Counted from the first letter of the stretch, positions 14,413 through 33,824 are shown. The stretch: DNA of 40,765 bases from Myxococcota bacterium (GCA_036149055.1 JAYZQJ010000008.1:1-40765); one strand, 5' to 3'. The notes: generated by a model from the sequence alone, not told the origin. Made by a program: numbers and translations.

Positions 14413-14471
14413 CCCCCAGAGCTTCGCTGCGCCCCAGGGCGCCAACCACGATTCCGGGAGGCGAAGCGAAC

Positions 14472-15236: not shown

Positions 15237-15258
15237 AGGCGAAGCGGGAGAGCGCGCG

Positions 15259-15615: not shown

Positions 15616-15628
15616 AGCAGCGGGGGAG

Positions 15629-15693: not shown

Positions 15694-15732
15694 CGAGGGG
15701 TGACCGTGACGCACCCATCGAACCTGCGAGTC

Positions 15733-15864: not shown

Positions 15865-15970
15865 GATCTCTTCGTCGACGCAGAACGAGGGTAGGGGGCT
15901 GAGGAGGAGTGGTCTGGAGGCTCGCCAAAGCCGCTTGGCCGCTCCCGCTGCCGGTTGTGCTCCCGGCTCC

Positions 15971-16098
15971 GCAGCCGGTCCCGCAGCCGGTCCCGCAGCC
16001 GGCCCGCAGCCGGTCCCGCAGCCGGTCCCGCTGCCGGTCCCGCAGCCGGCCCGCAGCCGGTCCCGCAGCCGGTCCCGCTGCCGGTCCCGCTGCCGGCC
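15971..16098. repeat. 11-12 nt tandem repeat GC[AT]GCCGG(T)CCC, about 11 units
   Basis: gcagccggtccc repeated with gcagccggccc and gctgccggtccc variants. Confidence 0.93.
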
Positions 16099-16140
16099 TC
16101 GCGGTCCTCGTCGCGCTTCGCGCCCGTATGAGAGGTAGAC

Positions 16141-16305
16141 GTGTTGGCGCCTCGTCCTCCTCCTCCGACGGTGCCGGACGCGGCCGGGCGAGTAAAGGAC
16201 GCCTGCGGCGCCGGCTTCGCCGGCTGCGGGCCCTGCGGGCCCTTGTCCCTGACTAGCCCGGCCGCGCCCGGCCTGAGAGGAGGCGGAGGACGATGCGGGG
16301 CACAC
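16141..16305. other. Long branched inverted repeat upstream of the four-helix-bundle gene
   Basis: 16173-16200 pairs with 16245-16272 (24 of 28). Outer stem cgtcctcc/ggaggacg. The loop holds two small hairpins, gccgg-cttcg-ccggc and gggccc-tgc-gggccc. Confidence 0.7.
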
Positions 16306-16335
16306 CGTCGCGCGGGCCGCCTCTCGGAGAACACG

Positions 16336-16656
16336 ATGCTGAACATCACCTCGGACGCGATCGACTGGCTCACGCGGGTGCGGCCGGTCTGGGAGGCCAT
16401 CGCGAAGCAGGACAAGGACCTCGCTCGGCAGCTGCGGGACAGCGCGTCGAGCGTGGTCGGCAACCTCGGCGAGGGCGAGAGCCGGCGGGGCGGACATCAG
16501 CGCGAGCGGTTCGAGACGGCCTACGGCTCGGCCGGCGAGGCGCGGGTGTGGCTCCTGGCGGCGGCCGGGCTCGGCTACGTCAGCCAGGAGACGGTGGCGC
16601 CGCTCGCGGACTGGGCGGACAAGGTCCGGGCGGTGACCTGGAAGATGATGAACTGA
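16336..16656 (+). CDS. Four-helix-bundle protein (23S rRNA IVS protein / Avd-like family), 106 aa
   Basis: GGAGA RBS, then MLNITSDA..DLARQLRDSASSVVGNLGEG..RFETAYGSAGE..W..A..LGY, matching the family pattern QLxRAxxSxxxNIAEG..F..A.GS..E....L..A..LGY. Confidence 0.88.
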   Translation: MLNITSDAIDWLTRVRPVWEAIAKQDKDLARQLRDSASSVVGNLGEGESRRGGHQRERFETAYGSAGEARVWLLAAAGLGYVSQETVAPLADWADKVRAVTWKMMN

Positions 16657-16662
16657 CGAATC

Positions 16663-16694
16663 GCGGCGGCTCCGGCTTCGGTCGGAGCCGTCGC
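16663..16694 (+). terminator. 14-bp stem with cUUCGg tetraloop just after the four-helix-bundle stop
   Basis: gcggcggctccggc-ttcg-gtcggagccgtcgc, with two G-U pairs on the + strand. No U-tract. Confidence 0.5.
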
Positions 16695-16862
16695 TCGCTC
16701 CTCGCGCAGCTTCCTGTCGAGAGACCGGGGACGATCTTCCCCATCCCCATCTCGCGCGAGACCCGACCGCCGGAGAGTCGTGAGAGGAGGGGGCCGCGGT
16801 GTCGTCTCGAACAGGGACGATCCTATTCGTTCATCGAACTCCGTCCGCTCCGGGCTGCGACC

Positions 16863-17030
16863 GACTCCGACTCCGACTCCGAGTCCGAGTCCGAGTCCGA
16901 TTCCGATTCCGATTCCGATTCCGATTCCGATTCCGAGTCCGAGTCCGATTCCGATTCCGATTCCGAGTCCGAGTCCGAGTCCGAGTCCGAGTCCGAGTCC
17001 GAGTCCGAGTCCGATTCCGAGTCCGAATCC
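16863..17030. repeat. Hexamer microsatellite (GA[GTC]TCC)n, about 28 units, same orientation as 15733-15864
   Basis: Direct reading of gactcc, gagtcc and gattcc units. Confidence 0.95.
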
Positions 17031-17276
17031 CTCGTTGTCGACGTACATCAGGGGAGGGGGGAGGTGGGAGGCGAAGAGGAACAGGTAGCGCTGGCGAGGT
17101 GAGCTCGGCGCTGCGCCCGGTGCCGTTCTCGCCTCCGCTGCCGTTCTCGCTGCCGCAGCCGTCTCGCTGCCGCTGCCGCGTCCGCCTGCGCTGCCCGCGA
17201 GTCGCGCCGCGCTCGATGGGCGTCCCTGCGGGCTGGCTGTCTCGCGAGCCAGCAGCTCGGGCCGCCTCGCTTCCAC

Positions 17277-17327
17277 TCTCTCTCTCCTCGCTTCCCTCTT
17301 TCCTCGCTTCCTGCGAGTCGGAGGTCC
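17277..17327. repeat. Dispersed pyrimidine-rich repeat, copy 2
   Basis: Aligns with 6507-6557; shared core TTCCTCGCTTCCTG[TC]GAGT. Confidence 0.7.
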
Positions 17328-17344
17328 AGCTGGGCGTGCGGTGC

Positions 17345-17690
17345 TGTACCCCCCTCTCGACAGCACCGAGTGCTCCCTCCGGGCATGCGACCACTCCCTC
17401 GGGGTGCACCGAGAGCTCGCGTCGAGGGGGGGCACCCCCTCCGCACGAGCACCGAGTGCTTCCTTCGCGGGGGTCGAGGGCCTCGCGTCGAGCTCTCGGT
17501 GCTCGCCAAGGGGGGGCTGCCCCCCTCGACGCGAGCTCCGACACCTCCTGCGTCGCCGCTCGTTCGCGCGAGAGGTGCTGTCCGTGCTCCTCGAGGGGAG
17601 GTGACCCCCCGTCTCACGAGCTCTCGGTGCTCCCGAGAGGGAGGTCCACCCCCGCCCGGAATGCACCGAGCGCTCCGCAGTCGGAGGGGA
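17345..17690. repeat. Degenerate 43-bp-period array with quasi-palindromic cores (GAGCACCGAGTGCTC / GAGCTCTCGGTGCTC), 8 units
   Basis: Cores start at 17363, 17406, 17449, 17492, 17535, 17577, 17620 and 17663, separated by G-run/C-run linkers. Confidence 0.75.
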
Positions 17691-17695
17691 CGCGG

Positions 17696-18736
17696 TCAGG
17701 CGAGGGCGGCGCGCGCGACCTCGACGTCGACGAGGCCCTCCTTGACGAGCTCCCGGAGGTGCATCTCGAAGGTCTGCATGCCGTAGGGGTGGCGGCCGCG
17801 CTCCATGATGTCCTTGAGCGGGACGTTGCCCTCGGGCTTGCGGATGGTCTCGCGGGCGGTCCCGGTCACCACCAGGATCTCGGCGGCGAGGACCAGGCCC
17901 TGGCCGTCGGCGCGGGGGAGGAGGCGCTGGGCGATGATGCCCTTGAGGTTGTCGGCGAGGCGCTCGCGGGTCTCCTGCGCGTCGCGCTCCCCGACCAGGG
18001 CGAGGATGCGGCCCACCGTGCGGCTCACGTCGGGGGTGTGCAGGGTCGAGAGCAGGAGGTGGCCGGTCTCCGCCGCCTTGAGGCCGATGTCCATCGTCTC
18101 CTCGTCGCGGATCTCGCCGACGAGGATCACGTCCGGGGACTGCCGCAGGGCGGCGCGCAGCGCGGTCGCGAAGTCGTCGGTGTCGATGCCGACCTCGCGC
18201 TGGCTGATGAGGCTGTTGCCGTCCTGGTGGATGAACTCGATCGGATCCTCGATGGTCACCACGTGCGAGCGGCGCTGCTCGTTGATGTGGCCGATCATCG
18301 CGGCGAGGGTGCTCGACTTGCCGTTGCCGGCCGCGCCGCAGACCAGGATCATGCCGCGCTCGATCTCGGCGAGCTTGCGGGCCACCGGCGGGAGGCGCAG
18401 CGCGTCGAAGCTCGGGATGCGCAGCGGGATGGCGCGGAGGGCGAGCGCGAAGGTGCCGCGCTGGCGGTAGACGTTCGCCCGGTAGCGGCCGACGCCGGGC
18501 ACCGAGTAGGCGGTGTCGTACTGCTGCAGCCCCTCGAGGGTGCCGGTGAAAGGAGAGCTCGCGAGCACGATGCGGGCGAGGTCCTTGGTCTGCTCGGGCT
18601 TGAGCTTCTCCCCCTGCAGATAATGCAAAGAGCCGCCGACGCGGAACGCCGGCGGCTGACCCACCTTGAGCAAGATGTCGCTGGCTGCGTACTGCTGCCC
18701 CTTCTTCAAGAGGGCATGGAGCGCCGACTCTTCCAT
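17696..18736 (-). CDS. pilT: PilT/PilU-family type IV pilus retraction ATPase (paralog)
   Basis: Walker A GAAGNGKSST, Asp box TIEDPIEF, ALRQSPDVILVGEIRD, His box AAETGHLLLSTLHT, GMQTF. Not inside a pil cluster here. Confidence 0.88.
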   Translation of the reverse strand: MEESALHALLKKGQQYAASDILLKVGQPPAFRVGGSLHYLQGEKLKPEQTKDLARIVLASSPFTGTLEGLQQYDTAYSVPGVGRYRANVYRQRGTFALALRAIPLRIPSFDALRLPPVARKLAEIERGMILVCGAAGNGKSSTLAAMIGHINEQRRSHVVTIEDPIEFIHQDGNSLISQREVGIDTDDFATALRAALRQSPDVILVGEIRDEETMDIGLKAAETGHLLLSTLHTPDVSRTVGRILALVGERDAQETRERLADNLKGIIAQRLLPRADGQGLVLAAEILVVTGTARETIRKPEGNVPLKDIMERGRHPYGMQTFEMHLRELVKEGLVDVEVARAALA

Positions 18737-19637: not shown

Positions 19638-20249
19638 CTACCAGGTCAACTTGAACGAGAAGTCGAGCGGGGTCTTCTGGTCGAGCTCGATCTTGCAGTC
19701 GGCGCCGTGCACCAGCTTCAGGGCGGTGTCGAAGGTGCCGAGGTTGTGCACCGGGCCGAGGAACTCGCCGGTGAAGTCGAAGACGCCGGTGTTGGCGCCG
19801 GTCTGCCGGAAGCGCCGCTCGCCGTAGGAGGCGAGCAGCCCGTAGCCGTTGGGCGCGGCGCCGAGCAGGCGGGTCGGATCCTTGCCCGCGAGCAGGGCCA
19901 TCGTCTTGCCCGCGATCGAGTCGAAGAAGGTGTCGACCGCGCTCGCCCCGATCCGGTGCACCGCGAGATCGAAGCCGCCCTCGCCCGGGGCGAGCAGGCG
20001 CGCCGCCTCCTCCTCGTAGCGCAGGAAGTCGCCCATCGCGTACTTGCTCATCGCGTCGTGCTTCTGCCCGGGGATGCCGGCCGCCTCCTTGGCCTGCTCC
20101 ACCGCGTCCGGGCCGAGGGCCTTCTCGAGCGCGCGGTCGACGGACTGGAAGACGATGCCGCGCAGGGTCTCACCGCCGGACAGCAGCTCACGGCGGTGGG
20201 AGAGGGCCACCTCTTCGGGGGTCGTGGGGCGAAATTTCATCGAAGTCAT
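19638..20249 (-). CDS. DUF2378 / TIGR02265-like myxobacterial protein
   Basis: 3' end of the long antisense ORF, with AAGGA before ATG 20249. Motifs TLRGIVFQ, IG..AVDTFFDSIAGKTM..LAG.DP.RLL...P.GY....SYGER and a terminal W. Confidence 0.8.
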   Translation of the reverse strand: MTSMKFRPTTPEEVALSHRRELLSGGETLRGIVFQSVDRALEKALGPDAVEQAKEAAGIPGQKHDAMSKYAMGDFLRYEEEAARLLAPGEGGFDLAVHRIGASAVDTFFDSIAGKTMALLAGKDPTRLLGAAPNGYGLLASYGERRFRQTGANTGVFDFTGEFLGPVHNLGTFDTALKLVHGADCKIELDQKTPLDFSFKLTW

Positions 20250-20324: not shown

Positions 20325-23300
20325 GTGCCGAGAGACAGGCTGCCGAAAGCATTCGATCGAGCCATCGCGGTCGTGGGCGTGGGTTGCGTCCTTCCCGACG
20401 CGTTCCGGGTGGACGCCTTCTGGAAGAACACGCTCGCGGGACATCGCGCGCTGCGCACCCTCTCGGGGGGCCCGTACGCCTGGGAGCGCTACCACGATCC
20501 GGACGGTTTGGATACCGAAAGGTCCGCGTCGATCGTGGGGGCGCGGGTCGACGGATGGTCGTTCGACTGGCGGCGCTTCCGGGTGCCGCCGAAGGACGTG
20601 GAGACGGTCAACCCGCTCGCCTTCATGACCGTCGACGCGGGCGCGCAGGCGCTCGACGCGGTGAAGGTGCTCCCCAAGGAGCGCGCCGGCGTGTTCCTCG
20701 GCGCGACCGGCTTCGGCTGGCAGCGCGACGCCGCGCTCCGCATCCGCATGGGCGAGATCGAGGACGCGCTGCGCGGCGCGCTGGAGGCGAGCGGCCGGAG
20801 CCTCGCGACCCTGGAGACGGTCCGCGCGCGCCTCGACGCCCGCCTCGGCCCGGTCACCGACGACACCATCGTCAACGGCCCCTCCTCGGTGGCCGGCGGG
20901 CGCCTGTCGATGATCTACGACCTGCGCGGCCTGCACTACGCGGTGGACGCGGGCTTCGCGTCGGCGCTCGCGGCGCTCGAGGTCGGCGTGCGCAGCCTCC
21001 GCGACGGAACCCTCGACCTCGCGCTGGTCGGGGGCGCCAGCGAGCTGCTCGCGCCCCTCGAGCTGATCGCCTTCAGCCGGCTCGGCGGGCTGTCGCGCGG
21101 CGACGTGACCCCCTTCGACGCGCGCGCGCGCGGCACGCTGCTCGGGGAAGGCGTGGCGATGTTCGCGCTCAAGCGCCTCGCCGACGCGGTGCGCGACGGG
21201 GACGAGGTCTGGGCGGTCGTGCGCGGCGTGGGCGGCGCGTCGGACGGGCGCGGGCGCTCGCTCCTCGCCCCCGACCCCGACGGGCAGGCCCGCGCCATGC
21301 GGCGCGCCTACGAAGACGCCCGGGTCGATCCCGCGGAGCTCCGCTTCGTCGAGTGCCACGCCACCGGCACTCCGGTCGGCGACCGGAGCGAGATGATGGC
21401 GCTCAGCCAGGTGGCGCCGCGGGGCACCTGGATCACCAGCGGCAAGGCGGCGCTCGGTCACCTCCGCGGCGGCGCCGGCGCGGTCGGGCTGCTCCGCGCC
21501 ATCCTCGCGTTGAAGCACCGCGTCTTGCCCGCGCAGCCGGCCTTCGAGTCGCCGAGCGAGGCGGTCGAGGCGAGCGGCCTCGAGGTGCCCCGCGAGAACC
21601 TCCCGCTCGAAGGCGACGGCCCGCTCTTCGCGGGCGTGAGCGCCTTCAGCTTCGGGGGCGTCGACTACCACGCGGTGCTCGAGCGCTTCGATCCCGAGCG
21701 CCACCGGCCGCCTCCGCGGGCGCGGCCGGCCCCGAAGCCGCAGCCGATCGCGATCGTGGGCATGGGCGGCGTGTTCCCCGGCGCCGACGACGTGCCGACG
21801 TTCTGGGAGCGGCTGCTCGAGGGCTACGACGCGACCCGCGAGGTGCCGAAGGAGCGCTGGGACGTCGACCGCTACCATCAGCCCGACGGCGAGGCCCCCG
21901 ACAAGAGCTACACCCGGCTCGGCTGCTTCCTCGACCGCTTCCCGGAGGCGGACCCGAAGTGGCGCATCCCGCCGGCCGCGCTCGCGACCCTCGACCCCGG
22001 CCACCTCGTCTGCCTGCGCGCCGCCGAGGAGGCGCTCGCCGACGCGGGCGTCGACCCGGAGGGCTGGGGCCCGCGCGCGCGCACCGCGGTGATGCTCGCG
22101 TTCCTCCCCTACCAGGGGAAGAAGTTCCTCGCCGACGTCAGGGTGAACTTCCGCGAGGTCCGCGCCGAGCTCGAGGCGGCCCTCGCCGAGGCGGGCGCGG
22201 CGCCGGAGGAGATCGCGAAGATCTCCGAGGACGCCGCGGCGCGCTTCTCGGCCGGCCTGCCGCCGCTCGGCGAGGACACCCTGACCGGCTACCTCGGCAG
22301 CCTGAACGCGGGGCGCATCGCCCACCGCTTCGATCTGCAGGGGCCCCACTTCGTCGTCGACGCCGCGTGCGCGTCGACCCACGCGGCCGTGCACGCCGCG
22401 GTGCAGGCGCTGCGGCACGGGACCGCCGACTGGGCGCTCACCGGCGGCGTCTGGGCGGACATGCAGCCCGAGTTCTTCGTCGGCGCGTGCCGCTTCAACG
22501 CGCTCAGCCCGACCGGGAGCACGCCCTTCGACGCGAGGGCCGACGGCTTCATCCCGGGCGAGGGCGGCGGGGTGCTCGTCCTGCGCCGGCTCGAGGACGC
22601 GGTCCGGGACGGGCAGCGCGTCCACGCCGTCATCCGCGGCGTCGGCGGCTCGAGCGATGGCAAGGGTCGATCCGTGCTCGCCCCGACGCAGGAGGGCGAG
22701 GCGGAGGCGATGCGCCGCGCGCTCGAGGAGGCCGAGCTGGTCGGCGCCGACATCGGCTACGTCGAGTGCCACGGGACCGGGACCGCGCTCGGCGACGTGG
22801 TGGAGGCGCACGCGTGCGCGGACGCGTTCGGCGCCGACGGGGAGGGCGCGCCGCGCGAGGCCCCGCTCCGCATCGGGTCGGTCAAGTCCAACATCGGCCA
22901 CCTCAACGCGGCCGCCGGGGTGCCGGGCATCATCAAGGCCGCGCTCGCGCTGCGGGAGGGCGTGATCCCGCCGTCGCTCAAGGTCGCCGCGCCCAACCCC
23001 AAGATCGACTTCGCGGGGCGCAACCTCGAGGTGGTGCGGGCCGCCACCCGCTGGGATCGACCGCCCGGGGGCGCGCGCCGGGCCGGGGTCAGCTCGTTCG
23101 GAGTCGGCGGCGCCAACATGCACGTGATCCTGGAGGAGCACCGCGCGCAGGGGACGGCCCGCGAGACCCCGGAGGCGCCGCGGCTCGAGCCCTCCGCGCT
23201 GCCCCCGATCGCGTCGGTGGCGGCGGCCACGCCCGCGGCGCTCGTGCCCCAGTTCGAGGCGCTCGCGCGCGCCTACGCCGACGGAGGCGTCGAGGCGCTC

Positions 23301-26300
23301 GCCCGCCCGGTCGGCGGCGGCCCGGTGCGCGCCGCCATCGTCGCGCCGACGCCGGACGAGCTCGCCCGGCGCGTCCGCCTGCTCGCCGCGGCGGTGGAGC
23401 GCGACCGCGGCTTCGGCTTCCTGCGCGCGCAGGGCGTCTTCGTCGCCGCGGCCGGCTCGCCGGTGGTCGCCACCTTCCCGGGGCAGGGCTCGCACTACGC
23501 CAACATGGGCCGCGCGCTCGCGGGCGCCGAGCCGGTGTTCCGGGCCATCGTCGAGGAGTTCGACGACGCCTACCAGACGATGACCGGCCGGCGCCTCACC
23601 GCGTCGTTCTGGACCGACTCGCCGGAGACCTGGGAGCAGCACGACGAGGACATCCACTGCGCGGTGATGGCGATCAACGTCGCGCTCCACCGCATGCTGG
23701 CCGAGCGGGGCCTCGCGCCCTTCGCGCTGGTCGGGCAGAGCGCGGGGGAGCTGTCGGCGCTCGTCGTCGCCCGCAGCCTCTCGATCGCCGACGGGCTCCG
23801 CGCGGTCTGGGAGCGGACGCTCGCGGTGCTCGCGCTCGAGCGCGACGACCCCGGGCGCATGATCTCGATCCGGGCCGGCAAGGAGCGCGTCGAGCCGCTG
23901 CTGGTCGGCCTCTCGGGCTACGCGGCCATCGCCGCCGACAACGGCCCGGGCGCCTGCATCGTGAGCGCGGACCGGAAGGCGCGGAACATCCTGGTCACGC
24001 GCCTGACCGACAGCGGGATCGAGCACTCGGTGCTCGCGGTCTCGCACGGCTACCACAGCGCCCTGATCGCCGACGCGCGCCCCGCCTACCAGGCCGCGCT
24101 GCGCACGCTGTCGTTCGCCGAGCCGAGCCTCCCCATCTGGTCGACGATCACCGGGGGCCCGCTCTCGGCGGTGCGTCCGGACGGGATGCCCGAGCACCTC
24201 GCGTCCCAGTTCGTCGAGCCGGTGCGGCTCCGCGGCGCGATCGAGGGCGCGCACCGCGCCGGCGGCCGGCTGTTCGTGGAGTGCGGGCCGAAGTGGCCGC
24301 TGACCACCTTCACCGAGGCCATCCTCGGCGAGCGCGAGCACGTGGCGCAGGCGACCCTCCACCCCAAGGTCGGCGAGACGGAGTCCGCGGCCCGCGCGAT
24401 CGCGTGTCTGGCGGTGCACGGGCACCTCGCCGGCTGGCCCGGCGTCCGGCGCAAGCGCTCCAGCTCCGGGGTGATGCCCGCCGGGAGCGCGCCGCCCGAG
24501 CCCGAGGTGGAGGCGCCGTCTCGCGCCGAGGCGCAGGACGAATTGCAGGACGCTGCGCGCTCGGTCGCCGAGCTCGCGTCGGTGGGCGTGCGGGACGGGG
24601 CCCCGAGCCGCGAGGCGCTGATCGCGCTGCTGCGTCAGATCCGGGATCTCATCGACGAGACCCTCGGCGCGCCCCCGGTCGAGGCCGAGGCTCGCCGGCA
24701 GGCGGTGAACGACCCGGAGCGCTTCCCCAGCGAGGCGCCGACCGATCGCCGCGCGCCGGTCGCGCTCGTCCGCGTGCCGAGGCCGGCGCCGCGCCTCCCT
24801 TCGAGCCGGCCCTCGAGCCGGCCGTCGAGCGTGCCGCCGATGAGCGCGTCCGAGCTCGAGGCGCGCCTGCGCGAGGCGTTCGCCGGTCGGACCGGCTACC
24901 CGGTCGAGATGCTCGAGCCGGGGCTCGACCTCGAGGCGGATCTCGGCATCGACACCGTCAAGCAGGTGGCCGTGCTCGGGGGGCTGCGCGAGGAGCTCGG
25001 GCTCACGCTGGACGCGGCCTTCGTGCCGCGGGACCACCCGACCATCGCGGCGATGGCCCGCTACCTCGAGGGGCGCATGCAGGCGGCCGCGCCGACCTCG
25101 GGGACCCGGGAGAGCGCGTTCGCCGCCGCCCGGCGCTCGAGCGCCGCCCTCGCCGAGAAGGGGCTGCTCGACCGGCTGCAGCGCGCGTTCGCCCAGCGCA
25201 CCGGCTACCCGGTGGAGATGCTCGAGCCGAGCCTCGACCTCGAGGCCGACCTCGGGGTCGACACCGTCAAGCAGGTCGCGGTGCTCTCGGCGCTGCGCGC
25301 GGAGCTCGGCCTCGCGCCGGACGAGACCTTCGAGCTGCGCCGGCACCCGAGCCTCGGATCCCTCGCGCGCTACCTCGCCGGCCGGATCACCGCCGCCGCG
25401 CGCGCGCTCCGGGAGCCGTCGAGCGTCCCGCCCCGCGGTCGCACCAGCTGGCCGGCCGCGCACACCCCGGGGACGCTGCGCGCGGACATGCGGCGGCGGC
25501 TCGTCGACGCCTTCGCGCGGCGGACTGGCTACCCGGAGGAGATGCTCGAGACCGATCTCGACCTCGAGGCGGATCTCGGCATCGACACCGTGAAGCAAGT
25601 GGCGGTGCTCTCCGAGGTCCGCGAGTCGATCGGCCTCGAGGTGGACGAGACCTTCGAGCTCCGCGTGCACCCGACGCTCGGGCACCTGGTCGACTACTTC
25701 GTCGCCCGGGTCGGCGGGACCCGGCGCTCGCCGGCGCCGCGGGAGCGCCGCTCGAGCCTGCCGGCGGCCCCGACCAGCGAGGTGGGGGCCCTGCTGCGCC
25801 GCGCCTTCGCCGAGCGCACCGGCTACCCCGAGGAGATGCTCGACGAGGAGCTCGAGCTCGAGGCGGACCTCGGCATCGACACCGTCAAGCAGGTCGCGGT
25901 GCTCGGGCAGGTGCGCGAGAGCCTGCAGCTCGCGCCCGACGCCGACTTCGTGCTGCGCGACCACCGCACGCTCGCCGACCTCGTCGCCTACTTCCGCGGG
26001 CGCCTCGCCGGGGCCGCGCCGCCCGCCTCGAGCTTGCCTCCGCCGCGCCCGGGCCCCGCCTGGCCGGCCACCGAGGTGGCGAGCGCCGCCTTCTCGCCGC
26101 GGAGCGAGGGCACCGGGCCGTCCCCGCACGATCCGGCCGCGCGGGTGGTGACCGACGGGCGGCTGGTGGAGCTCGCGCTCGGCGCGCTCCCCGACGAGGC
26201 GGCGTTCACCCTGCGCGGGCTCGCCTTCGACCGGCCGGCGCTGGTGCCGGAGGCGGGGCGGCTCACCCTGAAGGTCGAGCGCGAGGAGCGCGCCGCGCCT

Positions 26301-26909
26301 CGGGTCCGGGTCTGCCGGGACGGCGAGCTCTGCCTCGCCTTCGAGGTGTCTCCGGACGCGCCGCCGGGGGCCGCCGCGCTCTCGCCCGAGCTCGCGTCGG
26401 CGCTCGACGCGCGCTGGGGAGACAACGCGAGCGCGATCGGCGAGGAGCTCGGCCGCCCGGCGCCGCTGAGCCGCGGCTTCGTGTGCGCCCCGCGGTGGGA
26501 TCAGGTGGCCAGCGAGCACGCGATGAGCGGGGAGCCCTGGCGACGCCGGGCCGCCGACCTGATCGAGCTCGGGCTCTGGCAGGCGGTGCTCGCCTGGTCG
26601 CATCAGCTCGGCGCGACGCACCTCGTGCGCGGGGCGGCCCGGGTCTGGCTCCGGGCGGTGCCCCCGCCGGGCGCGCGGGTCCGCGCCGTCACCCAGCTGC
26701 GCCCCCGGAGCGGCGGGCGCGCGCGCGCCGACACCCTGCTCCACGACGCCGACGGCGCCTGCTTCGGCGGCGTCGAGGGCATCGAGGGGGTCGCGATCGG
26801 CGCGCCCGCGCTCGACGTCACCCGCGGCGGAGAGGCGGTCGCGCGCTGGCAACACCTCTCGCGTCGCCTCACCGGGCCGATCCTCCCGGGGGAGGACGTC
26901 GGATGGTGA
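20325..26909 (+). CDS. Iterative-type I PKS subunit A: KS0-KS-AT-ACPx4-degenerate DH-like domain (~2194 aa)
   Basis: GTG 20325 after GGAG. KS1 DAGFAS/HATGT/GHL; KS2 DAACAS/HGTGT/KSNIGHL; AT FPGQG..GQSAG..HGYHS; four ACPs TGYPxEML..LEADLG[IV]DTVKQ; C-terminal hot-dog-like segment without the DH His motif. Confidence 0.9.
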   Translation: MPRDRLPKAFDRAIAVVGVGCVLPDAFRVDAFWKNTLAGHRALRTLSGGPYAWERYHDPDGLDTERSASIVGARVDGWSFDWRRFRVPPKDVETVNPLAFMTVDAGAQALDAVKVLPKERAGVFLGATGFGWQRDAALRIRMGEIEDALRGALEASGRSLATLETVRARLDARLGPVTDDTIVNGPSSVAGGRLSMIYDLRGLHYAVDAGFASALAALEVGVRSLRDGTLDLALVGGASELLAPLELIAFSRLGGLSRGDVTPFDARARGTLLGEGVAMFALKRLADAVRDGDEVWAVVRGVGGASDGRGRSLLAPDPDGQARAMRRAYEDARVDPAELRFVECHATGTPVGDRSEMMALSQVAPRGTWITSGKAALGHLRGGAGAVGLLRAILALKHRVLPAQPAFESPSEAVEASGLEVPRENLPLEGDGPLFAGVSAFSFGGVDYHAVLERFDPERHRPPPRARPAPKPQPIAIVGMGGVFPGADDVPTFWERLLEGYDATREVPKERWDVDRYHQPDGEAPDKSYTRLGCFLDRFPEADPKWRIPPAALATLDPGHLVCLRAAEEALADAGVDPEGWGPRARTAVMLAFLPYQGKKFLADVRVNFREVRAELEAALAEAGAAPEEIAKISEDAAARFSAGLPPLGEDTLTGYLGSLNAGRIAHRFDLQGPHFVVDAACASTHAAVHAAVQALRHGTADWALTGGVWADMQPEFFVGACRFNALSPTGSTPFDARADGFIPGEGGGVLVLRRLEDAVRDGQRVHAVIRGVGGSSDGKGRSVLAPTQEGEAEAMRRALEEAELVGADIGYVECHGTGTALGDVVEAHACADAFGADGEGAPREAPLRIGSVKSNIGHLNAAAGVPGIIKAALALREGVIPPSLKVAAPNPKIDFAGRNLEVVRAATRWDRPPGGARRAGVSSFGVGGANMHVILEEHRAQGTARETPEAPRLEPSALPPIASVAAATPAALVPQFEALARAYADGGVEALARPVGGGPVRAAIVAPTPDELARRVRLLAAAVERDRGFGFLRAQGVFVAAAGSPVVATFPGQGSHYANMGRALAGAEPVFRAIVEEFDDAYQTMTGRRLTASFWTDSPETWEQHDEDIHCAVMAINVALHRMLAERGLAPFALVGQSAGELSALVVARSLSIADGLRAVWERTLAVLALERDDPGRMISIRAGKERVEPLLVGLSGYAAIAADNGPGACIVSADRKARNILVTRLTDSGIEHSVLAVSHGYHSALIADARPAYQAALRTLSFAEPSLPIWSTITGGPLSAVRPDGMPEHLASQFVEPVRLRGAIEGAHRAGGRLFVECGPKWPLTTFTEAILGEREHVAQATLHPKVGETESAARAIACLAVHGHLAGWPGVRRKRSSSGVMPAGSAPPEPEVEAPSRAEAQDELQDAARSVAELASVGVRDGAPSREALIALLRQIRDLIDETLGAPPVEAEARRQAVNDPERFPSEAPTDRRAPVALVRVPRPAPRLPSSRPSSRPSSVPPMSASELEARLREAFAGRTGYPVEMLEPGLDLEADLGIDTVKQVAVLGGLREELGLTLDAAFVPRDHPTIAAMARYLEGRMQAAAPTSGTRESAFAAARRSSAALAEKGLLDRLQRAFAQRTGYPVEMLEPSLDLEADLGVDTVKQVAVLSALRAELGLAPDETFELRRHPSLGSLARYLAGRITAAARALREPSSVPPRGRTSWPAAHTPGTLRADMRRRLVDAFARRTGYPEEMLETDLDLEADLGIDTVKQVAVLSEVRESIGLEVDETFELRVHPTLGHLVDYFVARVGGTRRSPAPRERRSSLPAAPTSEVGALLRRAFAERTGYPEEMLDEELELEADLGIDTVKQVAVLGQVRESLQLAPDADFVLRDHRTLADLVAYFRGRLAGAAPPASSLPPPRPGPAWPATEVASAAFSPRSEGTGPSPHDPAARVVTDGRLVELALGALPDEAAFTLRGLAFDRPALVPEAGRLTLKVEREERAAPRVRVCRDGELCLAFEVSPDAPPGAAALSPELASALDARWGDNASAIGEELGRPAPLSRGFVCAPRWDQVASEHAMSGEPWRRRAADLIELGLWQAVLAWSHQLGATHLVRGAARVWLRAVPPPGARVRAVTQLRPRSGGRARADTLLHDADGACFGGVEGIEGVAIGAPALDVTRGGEAVARWQHLSRRLTGPILPGEDVGW
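24850..26010 (+). repeat. Four tandem ACP domains inside PKS A
   Basis: Four copies of F..RTGYP.EML....DLEADLG.DTVKQVAVL..R..L.L joined by Pro/Ser/Arg-rich linkers. Confidence 0.9.
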
Positions 26910-29900
26910 GCCGGGTCATCGGGTGGTCGGCGTGGCTGCCGGGCGCGCGGGGCGCCGACGAGGTGGCGGCGCGGATCGACGCGGCGGAGCCCGCGTTCGA
27001 GACGCTGCCGGAGCTGCGCTGGAGCTGGGACGTCTTCGCGGCCGAGATGCCGCCGGGCCACGCGCGCTGCGAGCGGGGCGCGATCCTCGGCGAGCCGGAG
27101 GTCGACTGGCGCGCGCTGAAGCTGCCGCCGCTCTCGGTCGCGCGCATGCACGCGATGGAGAAGGTGGCGCTCGAGGTGATGGCCACCGCGCTGCGGGACG
27201 CCGGCGTCGCCCCTCGCAGCCCCGCCGGCGAGCGGGTGCGCGTCTATCTGGCGGCCACCACGCTCGGGCCCGATCCCCGGACCGATCACGGCCGCCGGAT
27301 CCGTCGGCACGAGCTGGCGCGGCCGGTCGCGCGGGCGCTGGAGGAGAAGGTCCCCGAGCGCGCGGAGGAGGTGCGGGAGTACGTCGACAGCCTGTTCAAC
27401 CTCGTCGCGCCGCCGGTCGAGCCCGACAGCATGATGAGCTCCGCGAGCATCCTCGCCGGCCGCATCTGCAACCTGTGGGATCTGCGCGGCGGGCACGTGG
27501 CCATCGACGGCTCGGCCGCGTCGTCGCTCGCGGCGCTCGAGGCGGCGCTCGAGGATCTCGCCGACGGCGCCTGCGACGTCGCGCTGGTGGCCGCCGTCTC
27601 GCCGATGCTCACCGCCTCCGGCATGCTCGCGATGGCGCACCGGGGCTTGCTCGGCGCGGCGGCGCCCCGGCCCTTCTTCGCCGGCGCGGACGGCGCGCTG
27701 CTCGGGGAGGGGGCGGCGGCGCTGGTGCTGGACCGCGGCGCGACCGAGGGCGCGCGGACCCGCGGCTGGATCGAGGCGGTCGCCGGGGCGACGCTGCCTC
27801 GCCGGGGCCGCCATCGCCTCCGGGACGCGGTGGCCCGGGCGACCGCGGACGCCTTCGAGCGCGCCGGGGTCTCGGCCGAGGCGGCGGCGTTCGTCGCGTC
27901 CCGCGCCGCGGGCGTCCCGGCGGTGGAGCGCGAGGAGGCGGCCGCCCTCGCCGACGTCTTCGGCAGCGCGGCGCGCGCGCGGGGCCTGCCGCTCGCCTGC
28001 CACAGCCCGGTCTTCGGTCACCTCGGCCCGGCCTCGGGGCTGGTCGCGACGCTGCACGCGCTGATGGCCCTGGAGCGCGGCAGCCTTCGCGCGCCCCTCG
28101 TGGACACGGGCGCGGAGGAGGCGCTCGCGCCGGGGCTGCGGGTCGGAGCCGAAGATCAGCCGCTCGCGCCGGACGCGCGCGCGGGGGTGAGCGACGCGGG
28201 CCTCGCCGGCCGCGCCTACCACGCGGTCGTCGCCGGCCCGGAGGCGCGCCGGGCGCCCCGCATCGAGGCGACGCCGACGCCCGAGCCGCTCGCGATCACC
28301 GGGCTCGGGATGGTCGTGCCGGGCGCGGACGGCGTGGACGCGTTCTGGGACAACGTCGCGCGGCGGGTCGAGTCGATCGGAGATCTGCCGGCGAGCCGCT
28401 GGGACGTCGACTCGTTCATCGACGCCTCGGAGGAGCTGGGCGCGATCCTCAAGACGCGGCTCGCGGCGCCGGTGCGCCTCCCCGCGCCCGACCCGGCGCG
28501 CTTCCGCCTCTCGCCCTCGGCGCTCGAGGAGATCGATCCCGCGGTGCTGCTCTCGATGGCGAGCGCCGAGCAGGCCATCGACGACTCGGGCGGGGTGGAG
28601 GGCTGGGCCAAGCACCGGGTCGCGGTCACCGCAGGGCAGCTCTCGCTGCGCTGGAGCGAGGCCGAGCTGGAGAAGCGCGTGCTCTTCGCCGGGCACGTCG
28701 CCCTCGTCGCCCAGGCGATGCGCGAGTCCGGCTTCGACGGCGCGCGGGTCGACGCCGTCATCGAGGCGGCCCGGGGCGCCTTCGAGGGCCCGCGCTTCGG
28801 CGGCCAGGCGCTCGGCGCCCGCACGAGCCTGGAGTGCGCGGCCCACGTCGCGCGCTTCTGGGGGCTGACCGGCCCGGTGCTCTCGGTGGACGCGGCCTGC
28901 GCCTCCTCGATGGCCGCGATCGAGCGCAGCGCCCGGAAGCTCGCGCGCCGGGAGGCGGACGCCGCGATCGCGATCGGCGTCGCCTACAACCTGCTGCCCG
29001 AGTACTACATCGTGCTCAGCATCCTCGGCGCGCTCTCGCCCCGCGGCGCCCCGCCGTTCCACCTGGGCGCGGACGGCTTCGTGCCCGGGGAGGGCGCGGC
29101 CGCGATCGTGCTCGAGCGGCTGAGCGACGCGCAGGCCCGCGGCGCGAAGGTGCACGCCGTGATCCGCGCCCTCGGCGTGTCGAGCGACGGCGCCGGGCTC
29201 AGCATCTTCGCGCCCAACAGCGAGGGCGAGCAGCGCGCGATCCGGCGCGCGCTCGAGCTCGGCGGGTGGAGCCCCCGCGACGTGGACCTGGTCGAGGCCC
29301 ACGGCACCGGGACGAAGCTCGGCGACGAGACCGAGATCCACTCCTACGCCGCCACCTACGGCGACCGGGATCCGACCCGCCCGCTGACGGTCGGCACGGT
29401 GAAGTCGCAGGTCGGCCACCTCAGCTCGGCCGCCGGCATGGTGGGCATCGTCAAGACGACGCTCGCGGTGCGGGAGGGCGTCTTGCCGCCGACCCTGGGC
29501 GAGGATCCGAGCCCCGAGCTCACCCAGGGGCCCCTGCGGCTGCCGGCGCACGCCCGGGCGTGGGTGGCGCCGGAGGGCCGGGCGCGCCGGGCGGGCGTGA
29601 GCGCCTTCGGGCTCGGCGGGATCAACTACCACGTGCTGCTCGAGGAGGCGCCGACGCCGCCCGAGGAGCGCCGCGAGCGCGCGCGCGGCCTGCCCCAGGC
29701 GCAGCTCCCGGCCCGGGACCCGCTCGCCGATCGCTTCGAGGTCGAGCTGACCCCGGTGAGCCTCGGCGCGCGCGTCCCGCGGACGCCGCTCTCGGGGCGG
29801 GTGGTGTGGGTCCTGCCCGACGCCGGCGGGCTGTGGCGCGCGGTCGGGGCGGCGCTCGAGCAGCGGGGCGCGCGGGTGAGCCTGCTGAGCTCCGGGACCG

Positions 29901-32167
29901 ACGGAGCCCCGCCCGCCGACGGCATCGTCGACCTCGCCACCTTCGGCGCGCCGGTCGAGGGCGACCTCCACGCGCGGGCCAGCGAGGCCACGCGGCGCGC
30001 CCTGAGCACGCTCCGCCCGGTCTACGACCGCTTCGCGCGGGCCCGCCCGGGGGGCGCGTTCTACGCGGCGGTCACCAGCCTCGGCGGAGACCTCGGGCTC
30101 GGCGGCGGGGGAGAGGGAGACCTGGCCGGCGCCGCGCTGCTCGGGCTCGCCAAGGGACTCAAGCAGGAGCTCCCGTCGAGCCTCTGCCGCGGGATCGACT
30201 TCGACCCCCGCGAGGATCCGGAGACGGTCGCCGAGGTGGTGGTCCGGGAGCTCGAGGACGGCAACGACCAGCTCGAGGTGGCGTGGGCCGGGCGCCGGCT
30301 GGTGCCGCGCCTCCGCCGCCTCCCGCTCGGCGAGGACGCGCCCCACCGCCCGATCGAGGCGTCCGACGTGGTCGTGGTCAGCGGGGGCGGCCGCGGCGTG
30401 GTCTTCGAGTGCGCGACGGCGCTGGCCCGGCTCGGCGCCCGGGTGGTCGTCACCGGCCGCACCGCGCTGCCCGACCCCGACGCGCCCTTCCTGGAGCTCG
30501 ACGACGAGGCCTTCCAGCGCTTCGGCCGCGAGCACATGCTGCGACGCCGGAGGGAGGACCCGTCGAGCTCTCCGAAGCGCCTGCGCGCCGAGATCGACGC
30601 CCTCGAGCGGCAGCGCGAGCTGCACGAGAACCTGCGCCGCGCCCGGGCGGACCAGCTCTCGCTCGAGTACGAGGAGTGCGACGTGACCGACCGCGACGCC
30701 GTCACCGCGCTCGTGGAGCGCGTCCGCGCGCGCTGGGGTCCCATCACCGGGCTCGCGCACGGCGCGATGGTGCAGTGGTCGACGCTCGCCTCGCGCAAGG
30801 AGCCGGACAAGGTCGACGCCACCCTCGCGGTGAAGGGCCTGGCGCTCTCGCACCTCCTCGACGCGACCCGGGACGATCCGCTGAAGATCGTGCTCGGCTT
30901 CGGCTCGGGCGCGGGGCGCTTCGGCAACCGCGGGCAGGCCGACTACTGCGCGGCGAACGCGCTGATGGCGGCCCAGATCGCGGCCGCGGGGCAGCGGGAC
31001 CGCCGCGGCGCGCGCTTCGTGACCGTCGACTGGACGGCCTGGGATCAGGTGGGCGCCGCGGTCGAGGACCCGGACCTGACGGAGCTCCTGCGCTCCACCG
31101 GCATCACCTCGATCTCGGTGGAGGAGGGCCTCTACTGGTTCCTCCGCGAGTGGACCGCGGGGGTGAGCTCCGAGGTGGTCGTCTTCGAGGAGCGCATGCT
31201 GCACGACTGGCCGTTCCTCGGCCGGCAGGCGGAGCACGACGCGCGCGGCGCGGTGGAGATCGACGACCTCGGCCGGCCGTTCACGCCGGGCGCGTGGCCG
31301 CTCGTCGACCGGGTGCTGGAGCGCGAGCCGGGGCGCCTCGTCATCGAGCGTCGGCTCGACGCCTCGCGCGACGCGTTCCTCTCGCAGCACCGCTTGCACG
31401 GCGTGCCGATCCTGCCGGCGACCTTCGGCTGCGAGCTGCTCGCCGAGGTGGCCGCGCTCTGCATCCCCGGGATGGAGGTCGAGGAGGCGTACGACGTGCG
31501 CATCCAGACCCCGGCGAAGCTCTTCCGCGAGCGCCCGCTGGTGATCCGGGCCCGCGCGGTGCTCGAGGCGGACGGGGAGGGCGACGCGCTCGTCCGGAGC
31601 GAGTCGCGCTCGCGGCTGACGCTCCGCGGACGCCACCTCGAGGAGCGCGTCCATCACGGCGCGCGCTTCCGCCTGCGGCCGATGGGCACGGCGGCCATCG
31701 AGCCCCGGGTGATCGAGGAGCTCGACGGAGCGGCCAAGGCGCGCTCGTTCTTCCACATGGCGCGCGACCCGGTGACGCTCGGCCCGCTCTACTCCCGCGG
31801 CGAGTGGATCCAGGTGAAGGACGAGGTCGTGGTCGGCCGGATCCGCGCGCCGCGCCAGCGCGACGTCAGCGACCGCACGAGCTACCCGCTCTTCCAGGTC
31901 GATCCCCTCATGATGGACACCGCGTTCCAGATCGCGGCGAACTGGGACGGGCTCGGCGGGGGCCACGTCTCGATCCCTTACGGCCTCGAGCGCCTGCGCA
32001 TGGGCCGCGCGAGGCGCCGCGGGGAGGGCGCGCGGGTGCGGGCGCAGGTCACCCGGGTCGACGACCCCGACGTGTACTACGACATCGACGTGGCGTCGGA
32101 GGACGGCGAGCTGCTCATGGAGATCCGCGGGCTGCATCTCCGGCGCATCGCGAAGGCCGACGGATGA
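26903..32167 (+). CDS. Type I PKS subunit B: KS0-KS-KR-DH (~1754 aa), no AT or ACP
   Basis: ATG 26903 after GGAGG, overlapping the PKS A stop. KS3 DGSAAS/SRAAG (no Cys, no first His); KS4 DAACAS/HGTGT/KSQVGHL; KR SGGGRGV..GRFGNRGQADYCAAN; DH FLSQHRLHGVPILP..MDTAFQ. Confidence 0.9.
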   Translation: MVSRVIGWSAWLPGARGADEVAARIDAAEPAFETLPELRWSWDVFAAEMPPGHARCERGAILGEPEVDWRALKLPPLSVARMHAMEKVALEVMATALRDAGVAPRSPAGERVRVYLAATTLGPDPRTDHGRRIRRHELARPVARALEEKVPERAEEVREYVDSLFNLVAPPVEPDSMMSSASILAGRICNLWDLRGGHVAIDGSAASSLAALEAALEDLADGACDVALVAAVSPMLTASGMLAMAHRGLLGAAAPRPFFAGADGALLGEGAAALVLDRGATEGARTRGWIEAVAGATLPRRGRHRLRDAVARATADAFERAGVSAEAAAFVASRAAGVPAVEREEAAALADVFGSAARARGLPLACHSPVFGHLGPASGLVATLHALMALERGSLRAPLVDTGAEEALAPGLRVGAEDQPLAPDARAGVSDAGLAGRAYHAVVAGPEARRAPRIEATPTPEPLAITGLGMVVPGADGVDAFWDNVARRVESIGDLPASRWDVDSFIDASEELGAILKTRLAAPVRLPAPDPARFRLSPSALEEIDPAVLLSMASAEQAIDDSGGVEGWAKHRVAVTAGQLSLRWSEAELEKRVLFAGHVALVAQAMRESGFDGARVDAVIEAARGAFEGPRFGGQALGARTSLECAAHVARFWGLTGPVLSVDAACASSMAAIERSARKLARREADAAIAIGVAYNLLPEYYIVLSILGALSPRGAPPFHLGADGFVPGEGAAAIVLERLSDAQARGAKVHAVIRALGVSSDGAGLSIFAPNSEGEQRAIRRALELGGWSPRDVDLVEAHGTGTKLGDETEIHSYAATYGDRDPTRPLTVGTVKSQVGHLSSAAGMVGIVKTTLAVREGVLPPTLGEDPSPELTQGPLRLPAHARAWVAPEGRARRAGVSAFGLGGINYHVLLEEAPTPPEERRERARGLPQAQLPARDPLADRFEVELTPVSLGARVPRTPLSGRVVWVLPDAGGLWRAVGAALEQRGARVSLLSSGTDGAPPADGIVDLATFGAPVEGDLHARASEATRRALSTLRPVYDRFARARPGGAFYAAVTSLGGDLGLGGGGEGDLAGAALLGLAKGLKQELPSSLCRGIDFDPREDPETVAEVVVRELEDGNDQLEVAWAGRRLVPRLRRLPLGEDAPHRPIEASDVVVVSGGGRGVVFECATALARLGARVVVTGRTALPDPDAPFLELDDEAFQRFGREHMLRRRREDPSSSPKRLRAEIDALERQRELHENLRRARADQLSLEYEECDVTDRDAVTALVERVRARWGPITGLAHGAMVQWSTLASRKEPDKVDATLAVKGLALSHLLDATRDDPLKIVLGFGSGAGRFGNRGQADYCAANALMAAQIAAAGQRDRRGARFVTVDWTAWDQVGAAVEDPDLTELLRSTGITSISVEEGLYWFLREWTAGVSSEVVVFEERMLHDWPFLGRQAEHDARGAVEIDDLGRPFTPGAWPLVDRVLEREPGRLVIERRLDASRDAFLSQHRLHGVPILPATFGCELLAEVAALCIPGMEVEEAYDVRIQTPAKLFRERPLVIRARAVLEADGEGDALVRSESRSRLTLRGRHLEERVHHGARFRLRPMGTAAIEPRVIEELDGAAKARSFFHMARDPVTLGPLYSRGEWIQVKDEVVVGRIRAPRQRDVSDRTSYPLFQVDPLMMDTAFQIAANWDGLGGGHVSIPYGLERLRMGRARRRGEGARVRAQVTRVDDPDVYYDIDVASEDGELLMEIRGLHLRRIAKADG

Positions 32168-32778
32168 GTGGGCCGCCGGAGGTGCGCGGCGTCTCCTGGG
32201 GCGTCGCGCGCGTCGGCGAGGAGGGCCCCGCGGTGGCGGAGCTCGATCGGCTCGGGCCGCGCGCGACCGAGGCGCGCCGGGCCACCTTCGTCGCCGGCCG
32301 TCGCGCCGCCCACCGCGCGCTCGAGGCCTGCCTCGGCGCCGCGCTCCGGGTGGACGCCGACGCCCTCGGCAAGCCGGTGGTGTCCGCGCCGGGGGTCGAG
32401 CTGTCGATCACCCACGCCGGAGGCTGGGCGCTCGCCGCCGCGGCTCGCGCTCCGCTCGGGGTGGACCTGGTCGAGGTCGAGCCGCTGCCCGACGCGCTGA
32501 TCGAGGACGCGCTGGCGCCGGGGGAGCTCGACGCGTGGCGCGCGCGGATCGCGGACGAGGCGCTCGCCCGCAGCCTCGCCTTCGCGGGCAAGGAGGCCGC
32601 GCTGAAGTGGCTCGGCGTCGGCATGGCGATCCCGCTGCGGCAGGTCCGCCTGACGCCGGGCGCGCAGACGGGAACGCTGCGCCACCCGCACGGCCGGGCC
32701 GAGCTGCCGCTGCGCTGGTTCGAGCTCCGGCCGGCGCTCTGGGCGGTGCTGCTCGGCGGCGGTACCCTCGGGGCGTGA
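32164..32778 (+). CDS. 4'-phosphopantetheinyl transferase
   Basis: ATGA overlap with PKS B. Motifs FVAGR..A, GKP, LSITH, GVDLV and FAGKEAALK. Confidence 0.88.
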   Translation: MSGPPEVRGVSWGVARVGEEGPAVAELDRLGPRATEARRATFVAGRRAAHRALEACLGAALRVDADALGKPVVSAPGVELSITHAGGWALAAAARAPLGVDLVEVEPLPDALIEDALAPGELDAWRARIADEALARSLAFAGKEAALKWLGVGMAIPLRQVRLTPGAQTGTLRHPHGRAELPLRWFELRPALWAVLLGGGTLGA

Positions 32779-33824
32779 ACGCCGCCCTCCGCCCCCTGGC
32801 CACCCTCCGCCTCCTGCCCGCCCTCCGCCTCCTGGCCGTCCTCGGGCTCGCGGCGCTCTGCGCCCTCGCGCCGCCCGACGTGGGCGCGCAGCAGGCGGAG
32901 CCCCAGCACGTGATGCGGCTCGGCTCGCTCATGCCGCGCAACGCGGTGGGCCGCAGAGGCATGGCCCGCTGGAACCGGATGCTCGCCGAGGCCACCGACG
33001 GGCGCCTGCAGGTGCGCATGTACTGGGGCGGTTCGATGGGCGACGAGCGTACGATGGTGCGCCGCATGCGCATCGGCTCGCTGGACGCGGCGAGCCTGAC
33101 GTCCACGGGGCTCTCCATCATTCACCGCCCGGTGCTGGTGATGCAGGCGCCCGGCATCTTCTCCTCCTACGCGCAGGTCGACGCGGTGCGCCGCGAGATC
33201 GGGCCGGAGATGGCGCGGGCGCTCGAGGGGCAGGGCTACGGGCTGCTCGGCTGGGGCGACGCCGGGCGGGTGCGGCTCTTCTCCAAGGAGCCGCTGCGCC
33301 GGCCGACCGACCTGAGGCGCATGCGCCCCTGGGTCCCGCGCACCGACGCCGTCTTCCGCCAGATGCTCTCGGTGGTCGGCGCCAACGGGGTGCCCCTCGG
33401 GGTCGGCGAGGTCTTCGGCGGACTGCGCACCGGCATGATCGACGTGGCCCCCGGCACCGCGCTCGCGGTCGCGGGCCTGCAGTGGTTCACCTCGCTCTCC
33501 TACGCGACCGCGCAGTCGGACGGCTTCCTGATCGGCGGCATGGTGGTGCGCCGGCCGTTCCTCGATCAGCTCTCCGCCGAGGACCGGGCGGCGCTCTTCG
33601 AGATCGCGGAGCAGAACCACGAGCGGCTCCTCCGGCAGACCCGGCGGGCCGACGAGCGCGCGTTCCAGGCGCTCACCCGGCACGGCATCCAGCCGGTCGA
33701 CGTGGAGGCGCATCGGGGCGAGTGGCAGCGCGTCGCGGACCAGACCCGCCAACAGCTGGCCGGTCGGGTGTTTCCGCGGGAGTTGTTGACCCGGGTCGAG
33801 GCGATCGCCGCCCGAACCCGCTGA
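32775..33824 (+). CDS. dctP: TRAP transporter substrate-binding protein (DctP family)
   Basis: GTGA overlap with the PPTase. Signal peptide, then EATDGRLQVRMYWGGSMGDERTMVRRMRIGSLDAA and EVFGGLRTGMID. An 18-nt tandem repeat (about 3 copies, 32781-32834) lies in the signal-peptide coding region. Confidence 0.85.
   Translation: MNAALRPLATLRLLPALRLLAVLGLAALCALAPPDVGAQQAEPQHVMRLGSLMPRNAVGRRGMARWNRMLAEATDGRLQVRMYWGGSMGDERTMVRRMRIGSLDAASLTSTGLSIIHRPVLVMQAPGIFSSYAQVDAVRREIGPEMARALEGQGYGLLGWGDAGRVRLFSKEPLRRPTDLRRMRPWVPRTDAVFRQMLSVVGANGVPLGVGEVFGGLRTGMIDVAPGTALAVAGLQWFTSLSYATAQSDGFLIGGMVVRRPFLDQLSAEDRAALFEIAEQNHERLLRQTRRADERAFQALTRHGIQPVDVEAHRGEWQRVADQTRQQLAGRVFPRELLTRVEAIAARTR

Follow-up and report, generated by a model that had tools for sequence, protein, structure and literature searches.

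The window analysed here is a stretch of 40,765 nucleotides from a Myxococcota bacterium (GCA_036149055.1, JAYZQJ010000008.1:1-40765), and it contains a polyketide synthase (PKS) operon in which all four acyl carrier protein (ACP) domains have Thr in place of the phosphopantetheine-accepting Ser. Carrier proteins are defined by an "invariant serine": the hydroxyl that opens helix II receives 4'-phosphopantetheine through the action of 4'-phosphopantetheinyl transferases (PPTases), and a Ser-to-Thr exchange serves as the laboratory's dead, unmodifiable control. We estimate at about 80% the probability that the Thr residues of the window are themselves phosphopantetheinylated. Modification by the PPTase encoded in the same operon is, on the sequences, the best reading, with strong comparative support, because the Thr family is conserved, because its acceptor site varies only among hydroxyl residues, because each of 22 Thr loci has a PPTase in cis, because one archaeal genome (G442) shows no Ser carrier, and because the Thr-type synthase CexF is a producer.

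The operon consists of three translationally coupled genes, A, B and a PPTase gene. The ACPs lie in gene A, in one shared frame, and all carry the motif LG[IV]DTVKQ:

24864..25067, plus strand: ACP1, Thr codon ACC at 24954
25170..25376, plus strand: ACP2, Thr codon ACC at 25263
25494..25697, plus strand: ACP3, Thr codon ACC at 25587
25776..26000, plus strand: ACP4, Thr codon ACC at 25881

A preliminary description of this DNA had proposed that Thr replaces Ser in all four ACPs, at these ACC codons, that they are the only carriers of the operon, and that sequencing error is unlikely; all three points were borne out. The Pfam PP-binding domain was found in four stretches of gene A and in neither gene B nor the PPTase, and when the whole window was searched with a sensitive profile, the only other ACP-like match was one at chance level (E 0.14), without the motif. 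The four stretches score 107.9 bits with PF00550, for a cut-off of 20.8, and the invariant Ser of this family at the start of helix II is absent, with Thr in 4 of 4 copies, which makes them a variant and not canonical members. Identity between copies is 58-68% for protein and 72-76% for DNA, over the segments compared. The acceptor Ser of solved ACPs (PigH, 5y08; A. aeolicus ACP; T. maritima ACP) aligns with the Thr. In an AlphaFold model of ACP1, built from 74 Thr-type sequences (pLDDT 96), helix II begins at T39, the Thr in question, and the model has the four-helix ACP fold, matching apo and holo structures of ACPs and peptidyl carrier proteins (PCPs) with TM scores of 0.82-0.85. As the 72-residue core of ACP1 contains no Ser, a neighbouring Ser cannot substitute for the acceptor in this copy. 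The same four Thr are present in the near-identical proteins P0001, P0124 and P0125 and in the next cluster (P0126, P0135, P0138 and P0139); these seven close homologues were independently assembled, which rules out sequencing error.

On the sequences compared, the Thr acceptor is a widespread family trait and is not peculiar to the operon of the window. Among the 120 best protein homologues, 100 have Thr-only ACPs, 18 Ser-only, and 2 are mixed, with one SVKQ and five TVKQ domains each; the homologues were ranked with a Thr query, so that the ranking favours Thr, and related entries among them are not independent. The close orthologues, which might have had Ser, have Thr. When genomes were scanned with other peptides as seeds, 80 loci were obtained, 7 with Thr and 73 with Ser. 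In a search for relatives of the window, Thr was found in 4 of 24 loci, the window itself being one, and Ser in the other 20, the two-gene Thr layout being a minority there. Three loci read from a plasmid collection were two Ser and one Thr, and no exact DTVKQ pattern was present in viral contigs. None of the conclusions drawn here depends on the unpublished genome G323. By name or record title, Thr carriers occur in Thermoplasmatota archaea, Myxococcota, Chloroflexota, Bacteroidota, Rhodothermota, Acidobacteriota, Elusimicrobiota, Actinomycetota, Leptospiraceae and a cellulolytic clostridium, which amounts to about ten phyla, archaea included.

In 476 distinct domains of the Thr class, the acceptor site is Thr in 99% of cases and otherwise only Ser (2 reversions). 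All four Thr codons are used there, in counts that take in overlapping loci. Outside the acceptor site, Ser reaches at most 19% in any column, and there is no second conserved Ser. The residues at positions +1 (Ile/Val), +3 (Arg/Gln) and +4 (Val/Ala) set these domains apart from 89 Ser-type domains. In a tree with the acceptor column masked, Thr and Ser ACPs fall on the two sides of a single branch (SH-aLRT 85, a weak separation based on 76 columns), both Ser reversions being placed within the Thr part. The reversions (DSVKQ, in P0052 and P0089) are confined to the first, most divergent ACP of their arrays, and offer a natural control for PPTase specificity. Tandem arrays in the Thr loci count 1-7 ACPs. 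Six proteins of Stigmatella and Corallococcus (P0034, P0070, P0078, P0084, P0090 and P0105) mix DTVKQ and DT[IV]TQ ACPs in a fixed order, which suggests specialised carriers within one array.

The third gene of the operon encodes the presumed partner of these domains:

32164..32778, plus strand: Sfp-type 4'-phosphopantetheinyl transferase, 204 aa, ATGA overlap with gene B

The protein matches PF17837 and PF01648 above cut-off, its H84, D101, E144 and K148 correspond to H90, D107, E151 and K155 of Sfp, and its hShxH motif reads LSITH. All 22 Thr loci for which downstream DNA is available encode a PPTase in cis: 11 have it in the ACP frame, and 11 at most 8.6 kb downstream, on the same strand. 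This count leaves out L057, whose contig ends within the ACP array. Of 29 non-self loci, 10 were extended. All ten Thr genomes checked contain a second PPTase elsewhere. In E. coli, AcpP S36T is neither modified nor functional (PMC3340395). The fact that a Thr ACP goes unmodified there would account for a dedicated PPTase being kept at the Thr loci, although a second one is at hand. A profile made from 19 Thr-linked PPTases found 1579 representatives at E <=1e-30; among the best 150 matches, 7 proteins also hold ACPs, and all 17 of their domains are of the Thr type, a result to which kinship contributes, the profile having been built from Thr loci. In Nonomuraea gerenzanensis (L176, NZ_LT559118.1), a synthase at 10114-17865 has a single Thr ACP, and the PPTase downstream (~23400-23900) has Asp for the otherwise invariant His of SxSH.

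Two stronger statements about these enzymes were dropped. PPTase linkage as a trait of Thr loci only relied on a count of 7 in 73 Ser loci, obtained from 10 kb flanks with a Thr-biased profile, and more PPTases lay further out. A Thr-specific clade or residue was likewise not found in the tree and the residue comparison. The Thr-linked PPTases do stand apart from the housekeeping and PfaE groups on the tree, and share a signature (GRxAAK, SxSH, ExR) that is partly common to the Ser-linked L032, L178 and L180. The orthogonal carrier/PPTase pair put forward in the preliminary description is thus supported in part: separation from housekeeping and PfaE enzymes speaks for it, and the lack of one clean clade on the tree and the shared signature speak against it. 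Ser reversions in proteins with a fused PPTase suggest that these enzymes also take Ser, in which case any orthogonality would probably be one-way. It may also be that any Sfp-type PPTase modifies the Thr, the cluster enzyme being unspecialised and orthogonality nil. The lack of a Thr-specific residue or clade would fit with this, as would the presence of own PPTases in Ser-type clusters and the restriction of the S36T result to E. coli enzymes. The retention of the PPTase at every one of the 22 loci, in spite of the second enzyme, argues against it, and we consider it unlikely, though of some weight; it is included in the probability given above for Thr modification.

In the archaeal metagenome-assembled genome G442 (1.4 Mb, completeness not given), the sole carriers are 4 Thr ACPs, and the sole PPTase lies in the same 3172-aa frame. 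Thermoplasmatota entries (P0045, P0047, P0052, P0089, P0117, L002 and L003) are self-contained synthases of 3200-3800 aa in which Thr ACP arrays are combined with a PPTase at the C-terminus; P0047 has in addition an enoyl reductase (ER)-like match (PF03060). They are candidates for an archaeal fatty-acyl or polyketide synthase.

A producing synthase with Thr ACPs is CexF of Clostridium (Acetivibrio) thermocellum, Type T of Shulse and Allen. The locus L172 was retrieved with a primer from the supplement of PMC12144888; three published primer sites follow one another there as expected, and its gene lengths agree with Table S6 in 9 of 9 cases, which identifies L172 as the cex cluster. CexF has three LGIDTVKQ ACPs, and the PPTase gene cexG is directly downstream. 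Deletion of cexF abolishes the pigment celluxanthene, a polyene (PMC12144888). CexF/CexG shares with the window tandem DTVKQ ACPs, a ketosynthase (KS), an acyltransferase (AT), a KS/chain-length factor (CLF), a ketoreductase (KR), a PKS-type dehydratase (DH), the lack of an ER and an adjacent Sfp-type PPTase. It differs in being a single KS-AT-CLF-ACP3-KR-DH polypeptide, while the window has two genes, and the cex cluster has further genes that the window operon lacks, for a free Ser ACP, two KAS III, a ligase and a hydrolase. A search of the text and supplement of PMC12144888 found neither "threonine" nor "TVKQ". The free Ser ACP, CexB, is assigned by the authors to one of two ACP-bound partners (PMC12144888). 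Because of CexB, the activity of CexF is no proof that its own ACPs are in the holo form, and we regard the CexF case, on our analysis, as strong but not closed.

CexB gives substance to another explanation, in which the Thr domains would be unmodified docking or structural repeats, the chain being carried by a Ser ACP in trans (CexB, or AcpP or another free ACP in the genome of the window) that the PPTase would serve. The unmodified state of AcpP S36T in E. coli (PMC3340395) and the several small free Ser ACPs in the genome of the window are also compatible with this. A free Ser ACP was found at only one, cex, of the Thr loci scanned (21 units plus G313 and G311), and the operon of the window itself, where a separate Ser ACP serving the synthase was looked for, has none. 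G442, moreover, shows no Ser carrier and yet keeps its fused PPTase, a mere scaffold would not confine the site to Thr or Ser, and the arrays of 1-7 copies mirror working PfaA arrays. We consider unmodified repeats improbable.

Another possibility is that the Thr hydroxyl serves a different chemistry, either direct binding of the acyl chain as an oxyester or attachment of a different CoA-derived prosthetic group. The occurrence of hydroxyl residues alone at the site, the concerted change of +1, +3 and the helix III region with the Thr, and the lack, in the window PPTase, of the carboxylate of Sfp E109 could be taken in this sense. The active site of a KS is reached by means of a thiol arm, and the KS domains that keep Cys-His-His would need such an arm on their carrier. 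The PPTase, for its part, keeps the Sfp catalytic set D107/E151/K155/H90, and Ser reversions occur in the same proteins. We consider a different chemistry improbable as well.

Several observations weigh against modification of the Thr by the coupled PPTase. The sole Ser-to-Thr ACP that has been tested, S36T of E. coli, is dead (PMC3340395). Ser carriers exist in the genome of the window, namely a PfaA ACP of Ser type (at least one) on another contig and 24 more, and CexB is encoded beside CexF. Linkage to a PPTase is not confined to Thr clusters: 6 of the 10 Ser-type genomes examined have one within ~7 kb beyond the fetched locus. The Thr-linked PPTases do not form one clade (3 changes, with the Ser-linked L032 inside, deep branches being open), and no residue unique to them was found in the comparison. 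The window PPTase, like that of G301, has Val at the position of Sfp E109, the second Mg ligand, where Glu is found in 93% of 32 Thr-linked enzymes.

Under the preferred reading, the four domains would be working ACPs of a Thr-type subfamily of PfaA-like tandem ACPs, and the coupled Sfp-type PPTase would move 4'-phosphopantetheine from CoA onto the hydroxyl of the Thr that opens helix II. The fixed changes at +1 (Ile to Val), +3 (Arg to Gln) and +4 (Val to Ala/Val) probably retune the interface with the PPTase or partner domains for the extra methyl; the smaller side chains at +1 and +4, which we take to be PPTase contacts in the Sfp-PCP structure, may make room for it. The AT would then load malonyl onto the holo-ACPs, pairs of KS and KS0 (a KS without catalytic residues) would extend the chain, the KR would reduce and the DH dehydrate. 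The synthase would be a two-gene, ER-less, iterative PKS related to that of dawenol, and with no ER in the operon its likeliest product is a polyene lipid similar to dawenol and celluxanthene.

The KR and ACP of the window are nearest to ACP5-KR proteins of Stigmatella and Corallococcus (35-37% identity for the KR, nearest outside the genus) and count as orthologues of the Stigmatella ones, whose ACPs are the sister group of the window ACP (support 95). ADO69379.1 (P0090) and AIS92916.1 (P0084) of Stigmatella aurantiaca have, like the window, Thr in all their motif-bearing ACPs, five in number, and differ from it in the domain split, being ACP5-KR proteins. They are probably the dawenol PKS, to which the strain, the record and the 88% match to dawenol found in C. 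soli point indirectly. The dawenol PKS of Stigmatella aurantiaca was reportedly described by Osswald et al. in 2014. It is a PKS of myxobacteria that makes a polyene and resembles the synthases of polyunsaturated fatty acids (PUFA) (PMC8767328).

Type R synthases have the layout KS-MAT-CLF-ACP(3-6)-KR, and the PPTase that lies downstream carries an hShxH motif (Shulse and Allen 2011, PMC3098273). The commonest layout of the Thr family, KS-AT-CLF-ACPn-KR-DH with a PPTase, is that of Type R/T (PMC3098273), and the matches of Type R layout in Acidobacteria, Elusimicrobia and Chloroflexota have Thr ACPs. The words "threonine" and "serine" do not occur in the main text of PMC3098273, to which the search was confined. 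The window shares with Type R/T the tandem DTVKQ ACPs and the PPTase, fused or directly downstream, with the hShxH motif; unlike Type R, which is a single KS-MAT-CLF-ACPn-KR polypeptide from one gene, it is organised as KS0-KS-AT-ACP4-DH0 plus KS0-KS-KR-DH. Its KS domains lie outside the Type R KS group: in a FastTree phylogeny, with long-branch warnings, the Type R/T KS group is sister to the Ser-type PfaA KS and the window KS are on branches of their own. PfaA PUFA synthases share the TGYP...LEADLGID ACP lineage and the tandem array after KS-AT, and differ by the Ser acceptor (LGIDSIKR) and by the use of a PfaD ER and a FabA-type DH, their PfaE-type PPTases grouping apart. AcpP S36T has the same residue swap, with the difference that it was engineered, unmodifiable and non-functional (PMC3340395), while that of the window appears to have been fixed by selection.

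The other domains of the operon are as follows:

20325..26909, plus strand: PKS gene A, 2194 aa, KS0 (no Cys)-KS-AT-four Thr ACPs-degenerate DH-like domain
20358..21686, plus strand: KS0/chain-length-factor-like domain, catalytic Cys replaced (DAGFAS)
21741..23138, plus strand: KS of active type (DAACAS, HGTGT, NIGHL)
23475..24374, plus strand: acyltransferase (GQSAG, HGYHS)
26010..26906, plus strand: PS-DH-like (hot-dog) C-terminal domain of A, no catalytic His motif
26906..32167, plus strand: PKS gene B, 1753 aa, KS0 (no Cys/His)-KS-KR-DH, GTGA overlap with A
29726..31165, plus strand: KR (GGGRG, YCAAN)
31298..32158, plus strand: PKS-type DH with His (HxxxGxxxxP) and Asp motifs

Of the four KS domains, then, the first in each gene is without the catalytic Cys (DAGFAS in A, DGSAAS in B), which leaves one KS per gene with Cys-His-His. 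Catalytic motifs are also retained in the AT, the KR and the DH of gene B. The KS, AT, KR and DH had been described as intact, which is correct for one KS per gene, the AT, the KR and the DH of B, and incorrect for the two KS without Cys and for the DH-like domain of A. The latter belongs with PS-DH clusters of the ESM Atlas (score 0.94), matches the DH of gene B weakly in a profile comparison (probability 23%), and reaches a pLDDT of 37 when folded as a single sequence; it is probably a pseudo-dehydratase. None of the 27 window proteins scanned is an enoyl reductase, a thioesterase, a PfaD enoyl reductase or a FabA-type DH, and the PF03060 matches of the genome are on three other contigs. TIGR02813 (PfaA) is the best NCBIfam model, with 871 bits for A and 404 for B, both below the cut-off of 1010.

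The degenerate KS and DH-like domains might point to a dead or decaying cluster, or to an error in the sequence. In RNA contigs from two studies, coverage of the operon is much the same as that of its flanks, and DNA may be present in them, so that no expression can be claimed from these contigs. The frames are nevertheless intact, and the orthologues in G301 (78-85% identity) and G313 (36-39%) keep the two-gene layout, the Thr ACPs and the PPTase. KS0 domains are normal in PfaA-like systems, as described for Types B and R (PMC3098273), and CexF is active (PMC12144888). A dead cluster or a sequence error is extremely improbable.

The genome of the window (9.9 Mb, 73% G+C) contains two further PPTases, and 25 of its 28 PP-binding matches have Ser, all of them outside the operon. 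A second PfaA-like synthase, of Ser type (DSIKR ACP-KR-DH) and broken by the start of its contig, lies in G000, contig C191, 3-2330, and both carrier types, Thr and Ser PfaA-like, are thus present in this genome. Sandaracinaceae is the name given to members of the nearest protein cluster, and marine metagenomes contain near-identical DNA. In the Nannocystaceae locus L057, a 61% match to gene A extends as far as the end of the contig. Beside gene A, and divergent from it, is a further gene:

19638..20249, minus strand: DUF2378 (TIGR02265-type) gene

It is found next to gene A in G301 (88%) and L057 (52%) too, which raises the possibility of a link to the cluster. On the other side, a DctP (TRAP solute-binding) gene (32775-33824, plus strand) overlaps the stop codon of the PPTase gene and is followed by a Ser/Thr kinase gene, in the same order in G301; the DctP gene may share a transcript with the PKS. 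At ~16500-17500, between an SDR and a T2SSE gene, low-complexity, dinucleotide-like repeats (GLGLG/GIGIG runs) show small indels between strains.

We know of no biochemical demonstration of a Thr-type carrier. The literature search found no report of a Thr acceptor in carrier proteins; its coverage was outside most subscription journals, including the dawenol report, which may mention it, and the matches to queries on Thr exchange were unrelated (PMC8436480, PMC10445470, PMC10465960). From the sequences, the cluster types (Type R/T, celluxanthene and probably dawenol) were already known, and what appears new is the Thr acceptor, a putative variation on the ACP/PPTase system. A bolder proposal, to which we give a little less than even odds, is that O-phosphopantetheinyl-threonine is a real, so far undescribed modification of iterative type I PKS and lipid synthases in about ten phyla, archaea included. 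It would be installed by a PPTase subfamily evolved for a secondary alcohol, AcpS- and EntD-type enzymes would be unable to activate these synthases, and the result would be a natural, one-way orthogonal system on which the celluxanthene and probably the dawenol synthases run.

If true, a natural family with a fixed Thr breaks the invariant-serine rule and adds a new post-translational modification. Genome mining would have to change, as such domains would now be read as inactive, and the possible need of Thr-ACP clusters for their own PPTase upon expression would be explained. The host of CexF/CexG is non-pathogenic, cultured and genetically tractable, and has a coloured product. The carrier/PPTase pair could then serve for orthogonal protein labelling and for pathway insulation.

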